DNA of 64,000 nt from the NCBI RefSeq assembly GCF_003991155.1, contig NZ_CP031295.1. One strand, 5' to 3'. A model generated the notes under the pieces. That model searched no databases, was not told the origin of the DNA, and saw only the letters and a program-made list of their open reading frames with translations. Position numbers and translations under genes: made by a program. This document shows positions 5,543 to 13,140 of this stretch, one piece after another. The DNA comes from Escherichia coli. Its GTDB lineage: Bacteria; Pseudomonadota; Gammaproteobacteria; Enterobacterales; Enterobacteriaceae. Every line of letters begins with the position of its first letter. Position 1 is the stretch's first letter.

Positions 5543-7043
5543 ACTTCGACGACTACCTGCTGCCGGCCGAGAAGTTCGCCGCACTCAAGCGCGAGCAGGC
5601 CCTGCCCCTGGCGATCAACCCGAACAGCGACCAGTACCTGGAAGAGCGTTTGCAGCTGCTGGACGAGCAGTTGGCCACCGTCACCCGCCTGGCCAAGGAC
5701 AACGAGCTGCCCGATGCCATCCTCACCGAGTCAGGGCTGAAAATCACCCCGCTGGATGCGGCGGTGCCGGATCGGGCGCAGGCGCTGATCGACCAAACCA
5801 GCCAGTTACTGCCGCGCATCAAGATCACCGAACTGCTGATGGACGTGGACGACTGGACGGGCTTCAGCCGCCACTTCACCCACTTGAAGGACGGGGCCGA
5901 GGCCAAAGACAGGACGTTGCTGCTGTCCGCAATCCTCGGTGATGCGATCAACCTCGGGCTGACCAAGATGGCCGAGTCGAGCCCCGGCCTGACCTACGCC
6001 AAGCTGTCCTGGCTGCAAGCCTGGCACATCCGCGACGAAACCTATTCGGCGGCCTTGGCCGAGCTGGTCAACCACCAGTATCGCCACGCCTTTGCCGCCC
6101 ACTGGGGCGACGGCACGACCTCATCCTCCGATGGCCAGCGCTTCCGCGCGGGTGGCCGGGGCGAGAGCACCGGGCACGTCAACCAAGTACGGTAGCGAGC
6201 GGGACGGCTGTTCTATACCCATATCTCCGACCAGTACGCGCCGTTCAGCACCCGCGTGGTGAATGTCGGCGTCCGCGATTCCACCTATGTGCTCGACGGC
6301 CTGCTGTACCACGAGTCCGACCTGCGGATCGAGGCACTACACCGACACGGCCGGCTTCACCGATCACGTCTTTGCCCTGATGCACCTGCTAGGCTTCCGC
6401 TTCGCGCCGCGCATCCGCGACCTCGGCGAAACCAAGCTGTACGTGCCGCAGGGCGTGCAAGCTACCCGACGTTGCGCCCGCTGATCGGCGGCACCCTGAA
6501 CATCAAGCACGTGCGTGCCCACTGGGACGACATCCTGCGCGGCCAGCTCGATCAAGCAGGGCACCGTCACCGCCTCGCTGATGCTGCGCAAGCTCGGCAG
6601 CTACCCGCGCCAGAACGGACTGGCCGTGGCCCTGCGCGAGCTGGGCCGGATCGAGCGCACGCTGTTCATCCTGGACTGGCTGCAAAGTGTTGAACTGCGC
6701 CGCCGCGTGCATGCCGGCCTGAACAAAGGTGAGGCGCGCAACTCGCTGGCGAGGCGGTGTTCTTCAACCGCCTTGGGGAAATCAGGATCGGAGCTTCGAG
6801 CAGCAGCGCTACGGCCAGCGGCCTCAACACGGTGACGGCGGCTATCGTGCTGTGGAACACGGGTACACGGAACGCCACCCGGGGTTGGTCGAGGCCGGCA
6901 AGCCGGTGGACGGCGAGCTGCTGCAATTCCTGTCGCCGCTGGGCTGGGAGCACATCAACCTAACCGGCGATTACGTCTGGCGGCAGAGCCGCAGACTGGA
7001 AGACGGGAAGTTTCGGCCCTTACGGATGCCCGGAAAACCTTAG
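5543..7043 (+). pseudogene. tnpA: Tn1721 transposase tnpA, 3' portion (5'-truncated by IS26, several frameshifts)
   Basis: Tn3-family TnpA C-terminal translation split over three frames; ends ...[20 protein letters not shown] next to Tn1721 IR. Confidence 0.8.
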
Positions 7044-7077
7044 CGTACGATTTTTTCCGAATTCTGCGGGCTCCCCT
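7040..7077. repeat. Tn1721 38-bp inverted repeat
   Basis: Reverse complement of GGGGAGCCCGCAGAATTCGGAAAAAATCGTACGCTAAG. Confidence 0.85.
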
Positions 7078-7374
7078 ATCTCATCTGCGCAAGGCAGAAC
7101 GTGAAGACGGCCGCCCTGGACCTCGCCCGCGAGCGCCAGGCGCACGAGGCCGGCGCGCGGACCCGCGCCACGGCCCACGAGCGGACGCCGCAGCAGGAGC
7201 GCCAGAAGGCCGCCAGAGAGGCCGAGCGCGGCCGTGAGGCTTGGACGCTAGGGCAGGGCATGAAAAAGCCCGTAGCGGGCTGCTACGGGCGTCTGACGCG
7301 GTGGAAAGGGGGAGGGGATGTTGTCTACATGGCTCTGCTGTAGTGAGTGGGTTGCGCTCCGGCAGCGGTCCTGA

Positions 7375-8025
7375 TCAATCGTCACCCTTTCTCGGTCCTT
7401 CAACGTTCCTGACAACGAGCCTCCTTTTCGCCAATCCATCGACAATCACCGCGAGTCCCTGCTCGAACGCTGCGTCCGGATCGGCTTCGTCGAAGGCGTC
7501 TATCGCGGCCCGCAACAGCGGCGAGAGCGGAGCCTGTTCAACGGTGCCGCCGCGCTCGCCGGCATCGCTGTCGCCGGCCTGCTCCTCAAGCACGGCCCCA
7601 ACAGTGAAGTAGCTGATTGTCATCAGCGCATTGACGGCGTCCCCGGCCGAAAAACCCGCCTCGCAGAGGAAGCGAAGCTGCGCGTCGGCCGTTTCCATCT
7701 GCGGTGCGCCCGGTCGCGTGCCGGCATGGATGCGCGCGCCATCGCGGTAGGCGAGCAGCGCCTGCCTGAAGCTGCGGGCATTCCCGATCAGAAATGAGCG
7801 CCAGTCGTCGTCGGCTCTCGGCACCGAATGCGTATGATTCTCCGCCAGCATGGCTTCGGCCAGTGCGTCGAGCAGCGCCCGCTTGTTCCTGAAGTGCCAG
7901 TAAAGCGCCGGCTGCTGAACCCCCAACCGTTCCGCCAGTTTGCGTGTCGTCAGACCGTCTACGCCGACCTCGTTCAACAGGTCCAGGGCGGCACGGATCA
8001 CTGTATTCGGCTGCAACTTTGTCAT
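7375..8025 (-). CDS. tetR(A): Tetracycline repressor TetR(A)
   Basis: MTKLQPNTVIRAALDLLNEVGVDGLTTRKLAERLGVQQPALYWHF...; 216 aa. Confidence 0.95.
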   Translation of the reverse strand: MTKLQPNTVIRAALDLLNEVGVDGLTTRKLAERLGVQQPALYWHFRNKRALLDALAEAMLAENHTHSVPRADDDWRSFLIGNARSFRQALLAYRDGARIHAGTRPGAPQMETADAQLRFLCEAGFSAGDAVNALMTISYFTVGAVLEEQAGDSDAGERGGTVEQAPLSPLLRAAIDAFDEADPDAAFEQGLAVIVDGLAKRRLVVRNVEGPRKGDD

Positions 8026-10382: not shown

Positions 10383-10690
10383 TTACACGACCTGTACACG
10401 TCCGCCGAACCCGGAACGCAACAGAGCTTCGTGGGCATCCCGATCCGGGTCGTAGCAGCAGTCCTGGACCAAACGCACGTCGTAGTCCGCATCACTAGCC
10501 CAGGCGACGCTTGAAAGAACAACGCCGGTGGTGCTTATCCCGGCCATGACAAGCGTGCTTACGCCGCGCGTCCGAAGGTCGGCGTCGAGCGCCGTGCCAT
10601 AAAAGACGCTGGCTCGCGGACATGCATAGAAAAGGTCGCCCCGTTCGATCGCAAGCCCTTCGACGGGCAGACCGGTGCGAAATCGTCCGC
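10383..10690 (-). pseudogene. isochorismatase-family hydrolase, 3' fragment
   Basis: C-terminal motif GISTTGVVLSSVAWASDADYDVRLVQD typical of cysteine hydrolase/isochorismatase fold; upstream part not coherent. Confidence 0.35.
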
Positions 10691-10799
10691 TCGGGAGATA
10701 CGGTGAGATTTGGCGATTCGTCGCCGGCGGCGCATGTTCATACTCTTCGCCGAGCGAAAAGTTGGGGAACAGCACGGGCCGGCCGCGCAAGGCGTGCTG

Positions 10800-12320
10800 G
10801 CAGCCGTGCAGACCCTGCGTGAGATGAACGCCGACAACCTGCGCAAGGTGCCGGCCGATGCACCCACGGCCTTCATCAAGCCGCGCTGGAAGCCGCTGGT
10901 GATCACCCCGGAAGGCCTCGACCGGAAATTCTACGAAATCTGCGCCCTGTCCGAGCTGAAGAACGCCCTGCGCTCCGGCGACATCTGGGTCAAGGCTCGC
11001 GGCAGTTCCGCGACTTCGACGACTACCTGCTGCCGGCCGAGAAGTTCGCCGCACTCAAGCGCGAGCAGGCCTGCGGCGATCAACCCGAACAGCGACCAGT
11101 ACACGGAAGAGCGTTTGCAGCTGCTGGACGAGCAGTTGGCCACCGTCACCCGCGGCCAGGACGGCAAGCTGCCCGATGCCATCCTCACCGAGTCAGGGCT
11201 GAAAATCACCCCGCTGGATGCGTGCCGGATCGGCGCAGGCGCTGATCGACCAAACCAGCCAGGTTACTGCCGCGCATCAAGATCACCGAACTGCTGATGG
11301 ACGTGGACGACTGGACGGGCTTCAGCCGCCACTTCACCCACTTGAAGGACGGGCCGAGGCCAAAGACAGGACGTTGCTGCTGTCCGCAATCCTCGGTGAT
11401 GCGATCAGCCCGGGCTGACCAAGATGGCCGAGCCGAGCCCGGCCTGACTGCCAAGCTGTCGTCGCGGCAAGCACGGCACATCCGCGACGAAACCTATTCG
11501 GCGGCCTTGGCCGAGCTGGTCAACCACCAGTATCGCCACGCCTTTGCCGCCCACTGGGGCGACGGCGACCTCATCCTCCGATGGCCAGCGCTTCCGCGCG
11601 GGTGGCCGGGCGAGAGCACCGGCACGTCAACCCGAATACGGTAGCGAGCCGGGACGGCTGTTCTACCCATATCTCCGACCAGTACGCGCCGTTCAGCACC
11701 CGCGTGGTGAATGTCGGCGTCCGCGATTCCACCTATGTGCTCGACGGCCTGCTGTACCACGGTCCGACCTGCGGATCGAGGAGCACTACACCGACACGGC
11801 CGGCCCGCGATCACGTCTTTTGCCCTGATGCACCTGCTGGGCTTCCGCTTCGCGCCGCGCATCCGCGACCTCGGCGAAACCAAGCTGTACGTGCCGCAGG
11901 GCGTGCAAGCCTACCCGACGTTGCGCCCGCTGATCGGCGGCACCCTGAACATCAAGCACGTGCGTGCCCACTGGGACGACATCCTGCGCCTGGCCAGCTC
12001 GATCAAGCAGGGCACCGTCACCGCCTCGCTGATGCTGCGCAAGCTCGGCAGCTACCCGCCAGAACGGACTGGCCGTGGCCCTGCGCGAGCTGGGCGGATC
12101 GAGCACGCTGTTCATCTGGACTGGCTGCAAAGTGTTGAACTGCGCCGCCGCGTGCATGCCGGCCTGAACAAAGGTGAGGCGCGCAACTCGCTGGCGGGGG
12201 TGTTCTTCAACCGCCTTGGGGAAATCAGGGATCGGAGCTTCGAGCAGCAGCGCTACCGGGCCAGCGGCCTCAACCTGGTGACGGCGGCTATCGTGCTGTG
12301 GAACACGGTGTACCTGGAAC
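10800..12320 (+). pseudogene. tnpA: Tn1721 tnpA' partial duplicate (3'-truncated by IS26, multiple indels)
   Basis: Near-repeat of 5543-7043 with scattered single-base indels; runs into IS26 IR at 12321. Confidence 0.7.
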
Positions 12321-13140
12321 GGCACTGTTGCAAAGTTAGCGATGAGGCAGCCTTTTGTCTTATTCAAAGGCCTTACATTTCAAAAACTCTGCTTACCAGG
12401 CGCATTTCGCCCAGGGGATCACCATAATAAAATGCTGAGGCCTGGCCTTTTGCGTAGTGCACGCATCACCTCAATACCTTTGATGGTGGCGTAAGCCGTC
12501 TTCATGGATTTAAATCCCAGCGTGGCGCCGATTATCCGTTTCAGTTTGCCATGATCGCATTCAATCACGTTGTTCCGGTACTTAATCTGTCGGTGTTCAA
12601 CGTCAGACGGCACACGGCCTTCGCGTTTGAGCAGAGCAAGCGCGCGACCATAGGCGGGCGCTTTATCCGTGTTGATGAATCGCGGGATCTGCCACTTCTT
12701 CACGTTGTTGAGGATTTTACCCAGAAACCGGTATGCAGCTTTGCTGTTACGACGGGAGGAGAGATAAAATCGACAGTGCGGCCCCGGCTGTCGACGGCCC
12801 GGTACAGATACGCCCAGCGGCCATTGACCTTCACGTAGGTTTCATCCATGTGCCACGGGCAAAGATCGGAAGGGTTACGCCAGTACCAGCGCAGCCGTTT
12901 TTCCATTTCAGGCGCATAACGCTGAACCCAGCGGTAAATCGTGGAGTGATCGACATTCACTCCGCGTTCAGCCAGCATCTCCTGCAGCTCACGGTAACTG
13001 ATGCCGTATTTGCAGTACCAGCGTACGGCCCACAGAATGATGTCACGCTGAAAATGCCGGCCTTTGAATGGGTTCATGTGCAGCTCCATCAGCAAAAGGG
13101 GATGATAAGTTTATCACCACCGACTATTTGCAACAGTGCC
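12321..13140 (-). mobile_element. IS26 (copy 2; transposase frameshifted)
   Basis: 820 bp between IS26 IRs; homopolymer-length and base differences versus copy 1 break the tnp26 frame. Confidence 0.85.
12373..13077 (-). pseudogene. tnp26: IS26 tnp26 with frameshifts
   Basis: Split into ORFs 12700-13095 and 12419-12703. Confidence 0.8.

Follow-up and report, generated by a model that had tools for sequence, protein, structure and literature searches.

When default ONT models are used, approximately 70% of the consensus errors in Enterobacteriaceae genomes fall in Dcm motifs, with homopolymers as the next source (Wick et al. 2019, PMC6591954). Moreover, alignment-based short-read polishers leave errors in repeats, since reads are placed on whichever instance is error-free (Wick and Holt 2022, PMC8812927). 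The Escherichia coli plasmid DNA examined herein, a stretch of 64,000 nucleotides hereafter called the window, carries differences that resemble the residual repeat errors described in both reports. They are dominated by deletions, fall on Dcm CCWGG sites and short G/C runs, and reside in exact repeats, with clean unique sequence and frameshifted open reading frames (ORFs) completing the likeness. In contrast to those reports, the local density in the window (1-3.6%) exceeds typical consensus error, and a few errors are also present in window-unique sequence. The initial annotation had suggested that the pattern may reflect consensus errors, and this suggestion is borne out, as the differences respect repeat boundaries, are biased toward deletions, hit every Dcm site of the repeat, and are private to this record among thousands of relatives. 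Because the small deletions in two tnpA remnants and in one IS26 copy are almost certainly uncorrected long-read errors in exact repeats rather than gene decay, the finding is an ordinary assembly artefact and holds no new biology. The break in pecM is probably a sequencing error of the same kind.

The resistance module that carries these differences resides on an IncFIB/IncFIC ColV-type E. coli plasmid. This IS26-bounded module is very common, with over 350 plasmid records matching it at 99.1-99.3% identity. It begins with IS26 copy 1 (820 bp, positions 4723-5542, minus strand), whose tnp26 frame is open and which matches the references throughout. Adjacent to this copy is the 3′ part of a Tn1721/TnAs1-type tnpA gene (5543-7043, plus strand, approximately tnpA nucleotides 1451-2967), which is cut on its 5′ side by IS26 and was identified from nucleotide matches to annotated TnAs1-family tnpA. 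Overlapping the tnpA stop is a sequence of 38 bp (7039-7076, minus strand) that occurs once and that exactly matches the terminal inverted repeat (IR) of Tn1721. The module continues with tetR(A) (7375-8025, minus strand), tet(A) (8131-9327, plus strand), pecM, which codes for an EamA family transporter (9362-10245, minus strand), an intact ORF for an isochorismatase-family cysteine hydrolase (10383-10775, minus strand), and a second tnpA remnant (10775-12320, plus strand, tnpA nucleotides 1212-2795). The 3′ side of this remnant is cut by IS26 copy 2 (12321-13140, minus strand). Beyond it are an IS26 remnant of 339 bp (13141-13479, plus strand) that lies in the opposite orientation to copy 2 and has the same sequence as the other copies, an intact aph(3′)-Ia gene (13617-14432, minus strand), and IS26 copy 3 (820 bp, 14520-15339, plus strand), whose frame is open and which carries one private substitution at 14898.

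The tetracycline portion is like Tn1721 in having the tnpA 3′ end, the exact 38-bp IR, tetR(A), tet(A), pecM, and a second, directly repeated tnpA remnant, and the order of these elements is the order seen in hundreds of plasmids. It differs from Tn1721 in that IS26 has removed the right end and the left part, comprising the 5′ portion of tnpA together with whatever lay to its left. Specifically, the cut in tnpA falls at nucleotide ~1451, where IS26 adjoins it at 5543, and that in the right remnant falls at 12320. The Tn1721 piece present here is a fragment that is incapable of moving by itself. The module also resembles IS26 pseudo-compound structures with a Tn4352-type aph(3′)-Ia unit, in that the tet and aph modules are flanked by three 820-bp IS26 copies and by the 339-bp remnant, with the latter forming the left end of a Tn4352-like aph(3′)-Ia unit that is itself truncated. 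The layout in CP058075.1 and NZ_CP069658.1 is identical to this IS26/tet/aph arrangement, but the frameshifted tnp26 of copy 2 is absent from both records, and the module as a whole has the opposite orientation with respect to the backbone of CP058075.1.

Aligned over 1,352 columns, the two tnpA remnants, which are direct repeats, are only 94.7% identical; the alignment has 23 mismatches and 49 gap columns, the latter arising from 35 gap openings. Neither remnant has an open frame, whereas the reference equivalents contain no stops in one frame. The frame of copy 1 is broken by 13 events (5 on Dcm sites), all of which lie within a tract spanning 6184-6880, and the first 640 nucleotides of this copy (5543-6183) are clean. 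In copy 2, whose local error density is ~3.6%, 32 events (7 of them at Dcm sites) disrupt the frame between 10993 and 12198. The initial annotation correctly described divergent segments with split frames and correctly placed the first at 5543-7043. However, it spoke of many single-base indels, when deletions of two to five bases and 21 substitutions are also present, and it placed the start of the second segment at 10800 rather than at 10775. In reference plasmids that have the same module, such as NZ_CP041112.1, the two tnpA copies are mutually identical and each has an open frame. The divergence between the copies in the window is only apparent and is no property of Tn1721.

The positions of the differences follow the layout of the repeat. 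There are 45 difference events in the 2,666 nucleotides of exact repeat, compared to one in the 4,112-nucleotide unique core located between the repeats (Fisher p = 1.3e-17). The IS26 cut points define where the repeat begins and ends, and the errors cease within 20 nucleotides of those limits. For example, the last event of the first tract is 8-10 nucleotides past 6872, where the other copy ends, and the first event of the second tract is 20 nucleotides outside the repeat boundary at 11013. The exceptions to this confinement are small deletions in window-unique sequence at 2678, 9480, and 10993, the first being a nanopore-type CCTGG/G4 deletion at 2678-2681. At the level of single bases, the errors of the two tnpA copies are non-coincident except at one Dcm site that is wrong in both, differently in each; this site is also the only place where taking the better copy at each position fails to restore the reference. 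Downstream of the module, positions 15340-40200 differ from NZ_CP117716.1 by five substitutions and no indels, and IS1 copies that differ from one another by 1-1.5% do so without indels.

The notion of consensus errors in repeated GC-rich DNA, as the initial annotation phrased it, holds with respect to exact repetition but not with respect to base composition. We reject GC content as the cause, given that the unique core has an equal GC content (62.5%) and equally many Dcm sites (11), yet carries only one difference.

The types of difference are equally distinctive. Relative to NZ_CP041112.1, the region 5540-12320 has 56 deleted, 2 inserted, and 21 substituted columns, which is a strong excess of deletions (binomial p = 1e-14). 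Most of the deleted bases are G or C (41 of 56), and 32 of the 56 lie in runs of two or more, a modest excess over the 44% of all bases that do so. Each of the 11 Dcm sites in the repeat is wrong in one copy or in both, which amounts to 12 of 21 site-copies; the corresponding figures are 0 of 11 for the unique core and ~2 of 155 for the remainder of the window (Fisher p = 2e-11). Twelve of the 45 events fall on Dcm sites where ~2 would be expected (permutation p <= 0.0003), and at four of these sites CCTGG is altered to CACGG by a double substitution. Deamination of 5-methylcytosine (5mC) yields CTWGG from CCWGG. This process was rejected as the source of the changes at Dcm sites, which are deletions or CCTGG to CACGG conversions rather than C to T substitutions.

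Within the unique core, which matches other records at 3746 of 3747 positions, the translations of tetR(A) and tet(A) are identical to those of NZ_CP041112.1, in agreement with the initial reading of both genes as intact. The same reading had pecM split into two frames, and this is explained by the loss of one C at 9480 (GATCC to GAT-C, at a Dam site), which leaves 884 nucleotides instead of the expected 885 and shifts the frame ~40 codons before the end. Among the 3,152 records that contain this stretch, the deletion is shared by a single full-length match, NZ_CP023981.1. That record is itself error-laden, because it carries 33 indels across tetR-tetA-pecM, and its sharing of the deletion points to a recurrent technical miscall at GATCC. 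With this record as the sole other carrier, we reject the deletion as a circulating allele. Substitutions relative to CP058075.1 at 7481 in tetR and at 8407 in tet(A) do not belong to the artefact; they are real alleles that are common to NZ_CP041112.1 and NZ_CP073361.1.

The IS26 copies present a similar picture. Copy 2 retains a length of 820 bp, but three changes that are private to it relative to copies 1 and 3 break its frame, as had been noted initially. These are the insertion of a T at 12448 (T3 to T4), the loss of an A at 12765 (A5 to A4), and a change of GGGCACC to GGCACAC at 12611-12614. As a result, tnp26 of this copy is split into ORFs at 12419-12703 and 12700-13095.

The indel pattern of the repeats does not recur in the other records that were searched. 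At least 5,000 plasmid records were compared with 10791-12320; the best of them reaches 96.6% identity and none 99%, and the best full-length match to the second tnpA remnant among 5,426 E. coli complete genomes is likewise 96.6% identical. An error-bearing 46-mer was absent from the genome contig collection searched, and no record with the same indel set was found in PLSDB, the E. coli complete genomes, or the genome contigs.

We consider it very probable that the indels in the repeats are residual long-read consensus errors left by short-read polishing, and that they do not exist in the DNA molecule. The sequencing platform and polishing history are inferred from the error pattern, which is of the nanopore type. 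A long-read draft would have carried the usual profile of deletions, shortened G/C runs, and 5-methylcytosine miscalls at Dcm CCWGG sites. Correction with short reads would then have cleaned the unique sequence and failed on the exact repeats, since reads from a repeat of two or more copies would align to whichever copy is locally less wrong. Because the reads go to that copy, the other would remain uncovered and stay wrong. This picture is only approximate, because in a few stretches the errors of both tnpA copies are separated by less than a read length (reference positions 854-914, 1013-1061, and 1455). The deletions at 2678, 9480, and 10993 count against it, as short-read polishing should have worked in window-unique sequence. 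These deletions need an extra assumption, either that polishing was incomplete or that further copies exist elsewhere in the genome, and most likely they are leftovers of the same kind.

The error density of ~3.6% in the second tnpA copy is above that of a typical deep nanopore consensus, and suggests low depth or an unpolished bridge. One possibility, which we hold to be distinctly less probable, is that the artefact arose not in a long-read-first assembly with later polishing but in a hybrid graph assembly (e.g., of the Unicycler type) in which some stretches of the repeat paths were filled by a low-depth long-read consensus bridge. Such an origin would account for this density and also for the patchy pattern, wherein 5543-6183 and IS26 copies 1 and 3 are perfect, but the two copies are in a near-complementary state, with no Dcm site correct in both, and this agrees well with competitive read mapping. 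The two origins are indistinguishable by sequence alone and have the same meaning, namely that the differences are errors and not biology. Somewhat less probable still is a mixed case, wherein the repeat errors are artefacts and the pecM frameshift is a real mutation of the plasmid. Position 9480 lies in window-unique sequence, the adjoining 3.7 kb is otherwise identical to other records, and pecM is not known to be needed for tetracycline resistance, all of which would be in keeping with a real change. Against this, the deletion is found in only one error-laden record of 3,152, and polishing was apparently incomplete, since a nanopore-type CCTGG deletion at 2678 is also located in unique sequence.

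Genuine decay appears very unlikely. On this reading, the truncated tnpA remnants and one of the IS26 copies would be dead DNA in which real private indels have built up within this plasmid lineage. It is true that the frames are broken in the deposited sequence, and that both tnpA pieces are truncated and non-functional in any frame, so selection would not oppose indels. However, decay should spread without regard to repeat boundaries and be shared in part by descent, and neither behavior is observed. There are ~45 private events in 2.7 kb, compared to one in the 4.1 kb between the copies and no indels in the 25 kb downstream, and these events stop within 20 nucleotides of the limits of the duplication, to which a mutation process would be blind. 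No relative among thousands carries the indel pattern by descent even in part, clean IS26 copies are present in the same molecule as copy 2, and the 56:2 excess of deletions together with the recurrent CCTGG to CACGG change does not match 5mC deamination. It is even more improbable that the indels are real products of mutation directed at Dcm CCWGG sites and at runs of G/C (e.g., by faulty very-short-patch repair), in a process that would have acted selectively on recombining duplicate DNA in this plasmid and thereby caused rapid private decay of the repeated segments only.

The importance of the finding lies solely in data quality. A literal reading of the record would imply that an IS26 transposase is frameshifted, that pecM is truncated, and that the two tnpA remnants have diverged. 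Any comparison of the resistance module that includes it gains ~80 spurious differences, and the typing of IS26 variants, counts of pseudogenes, and phylogenies built from plasmid SNPs would be distorted as a result. Similar records could be flagged by reusing the same read-free test, wherein the Dcm sites of a repeat are all wrong in one copy or the other while none are wrong in the unique DNA between the copies. A separate region of the window, at 61.7-63.7 kb, differs from NZ_AP021915.1 in a substitution-rich manner, and these differences look like real lineage divergence rather than errors.

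The region at 4723-15339 is a resistance module bounded by IS26. After IS26 copy 1 (4723-5542) comes a tnpA gene of Tn1721/TnAs1 type reduced to its 3′ half (5543-7043, approximately tnpA nt 1451-2967), which ends in an exact match to the 38-bp Tn1721 inverted repeat (7039-7076). Next are tetR(A) (7375-8025, minus strand), tet(A) (8131-9327), pecM (9362-10245, minus strand), a small hydrolase ORF (10383-10775, minus strand), and a second Tn1721 tnpA remnant in direct repeat (10775-12320, tnpA nt 1212-2795). IS26 copy 2 (12321-13140) adjoins an inverted IS26 remnant of 339 bp (13141-13479), and aph(3')-Ia (13617-14432, minus strand) and IS26 copy 3 (14520-15339) complete the module. 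More than 350 plasmid records, among them the E. coli IncFIB/IncFIC plasmids CP058075.1 and NZ_CP069658.1, share this layout with 99.1-99.3% identity. The element behind it, a truncated Tn1721 with a Tn4352-type module, is well known.

The entire module lies in the opposite orientation to the CP058075.1 backbone. Its left flank (4700-4722, CGTCCCACTGAAGGACTATTTTT) is the reverse complement of the right flank in CP058075.1, and its right flank (15340-15362) that of the left, consistent with inversion by IS26 acting between copies 1 and 3, whose orientations are opposite. The left-side arrangement of NZ_CP069658.1 is the same as that of the window.

The initial annotation reported broken frames in tnpA, pecM, and one IS26 copy beside intact tetracycline resistance genes, and all of its factual statements are confirmed. 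The two tnpA segments are only 94.7% identical to each other, with 35 gap openings in a pairwise alignment, and neither retains an open frame, whereas the equivalents in the reference plasmid NZ_CP041112.1 read through the tnpA frame without a stop. As described, pecM is split (884 rather than 885 nt), because a C lost at 9480 shifts the frame about 40 residues before the protein end. Relative to copies 1 and 3, IS26 copy 2 has an added T at 12448, GGGCACC changed to GGCACAC at 12611-12614, and an A lost at 12765, which together leave tnp26 in two parts. The translations of tetR(A) and tet(A), stated to be intact, are indeed the same as those of NZ_CP041112.1, as is that of the hydrolase ORF.

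Differences from this reference are concentrated in the repeated DNA. Across 5540-12320 there are 47 events, comprising 56 deleted, 2 inserted, and 21 substituted columns. Copy-by-copy alignment confines 13 events to 6184-6880 in tnpA copy 1 and 32 to 10993-12198 in copy 2, whereas the unique core between these tracts (6881-10992; 4,112 nt, 62.5% GC, 11 Dcm sites) carries only the pecM deletion. Event density is thus 45 in 2,666 nt of repeat compared to 1 in 4,112 nt of unique sequence (Fisher p = 1.3e-17). Moreover, the error tracts end where the duplication ends, at borders that the two IS26 cut points define. Copy 2 extends to the equivalent of 6872, with the final errors of copy 1 at 6872 and 6880, and copy 1 begins at the equivalent of 11013, with copy 2 showing its first error, a deletion, at 10993, 20 nt from the repeat boundary. 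The two tnpA copies of NZ_CP041112.1 are identical to each other. In the window, the copies never err at the same base except at reference positions 1454-1460, where both are wrong, each differently. Everywhere else, choosing the better of the two copies base by base thus gives back the reference.

The type of change is similarly skewed. Deletions outnumber insertions 56:2 (p = 1e-14), and G or C accounts for 41 of the 56 deleted bases. Dcm CCWGG motifs are hit by 12 events, compared to about 2 expected (permutation p ≤ 0.0003). All 11 repeat Dcm sites are wrong in at least one tnpA copy (5 in copy 1, 7 in copy 2, 1 in both), compared to 0 of 11 in the unique core and about 2 of 155 elsewhere in the window (Fisher p = 2e-11). 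The same double change, CCTGG to CACGG, recurs at 6829, 6867, 11103, and 11473, and the remaining affected sites have lost 1-4 bases. Real mutation at 5-methylcytosine yields C to T transitions, unlike the changes observed, and was rejected as their source.

These changes are also private to this record. For 10791-12320, identity peaks at 96.6% across at least 5,000 plasmid records, none of which reaches 99%, and the top full-length match in E. coli complete genomes is likewise 96.6%. A 46-mer spanning several changes has no exact match in genome_contigs (100,044 species-representative genomes). The unique core (7044-10790) is identical to several records at 3746 of 3747 positions, and aligning 15340-40200 to NZ_CP117716.1 gives 5 substitutions and zero indels. 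The IS1 copies (35332-36099, 41370-42137, and 57620-58387, plus a partial copy at 3654-4133) serve as an internal control. They differ pairwise by 6-11 substitutions without indels, and because the three full copies are 1-1.5% diverged, short reads can distinguish them. Slightly diverged repeats are therefore unaffected.

Location, deletion bias, Dcm association, and privacy to the record all support the assembly or consensus error toward which the initial annotation leaned. When Oxford Nanopore reads of Enterobacteriaceae were basecalled with default models, Dcm motifs held about 70% of consensus errors, and homopolymer-length errors ranked second (PMC6591954). Short-read polishers that rely on alignment leave errors in repeats, since the reads are drawn to the instance that is free of errors (PMC8812927). 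The pattern in the window agrees with both effects. Together they account for clean unique DNA, each repeat Dcm site still wrong in one tnpA copy or the other, errors in IS26 copy 2 alongside perfect copies 1 and 3 and a perfect remnant, and clean slightly diverged repeats. We infer a sequencing platform and polishing history in which long-read (Nanopore-type) consensus errors would have been left in exact repeats by alignment-based short-read polishing. The same picture would arise if a hybrid assembler had bridged part of the repeat path with low-depth long reads, which might better match the 3.6% local error density in tnpA copy 2, but this origin would not alter the meaning of the differences. 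By either route the differences are almost certainly artefacts, genuine decay is very unlikely, and nothing here is biologically new.

Three deletions lie in unique sequence, one of them the deletion at 10993 close to the repeat boundary. The pecM deletion at 9480 lies at a Dam GATC followed by C, and the deleted form is matched at full length by one other record among 3,152, NZ_CP023981.1 (Klebsiella variicola pX39-4). However, when compared with NZ_CP041112.1, the tetR-tetA-pecM region of that record (1651-4563) shows 33 indels and 15 substitutions, with tet(A) fragmented and recognised only in part. Because this deposited sequence is itself error-laden, the pecM deletion is more likely a recurrent technical miscall than a shared allele; a real private frameshift seems doubtful. 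At 2678-2681, in a CPBP endopeptidase gene (2130-2780), CCTGG has lost CT and, three bases on, a G4 run has lost one G, a net in-frame loss of 3 bases (216 versus 217 amino acids) that is found in no plasmid record and is private to this one. This site, unique within the window, is probably another uncorrected long-read error, and if so, polishing was incomplete.

At 14898, the plus strand of IS26 copy 3 reads A, against C in every other IS26 copy and reference, altering a tnp26 codon; this is either a real variant or an error. At 30887, the window reads CCAGG and NZ_CP117716.1 reads CCTGG; this change to the middle base of a Dcm site may be a true SNP or a miscall linked to methylation. Compared with NZ_AP021915.1, 61700-63750, which lies in the leading region (ssb/psiB side), has a dense cluster of about 45 substitutions and two indel blocks (61999-62011 and 62755), but the rest of 40-61 kb is near-identical. 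This cluster suggests true divergence between lineages, or a recombination tract, rather than sequencing error. Finally, a 43-bp tandem repeat array at 60900-61415, with self-matches at 43-nt offsets (90-94% identity), adjoins sopA/sopB downstream and resembles a sopC-type partition site.
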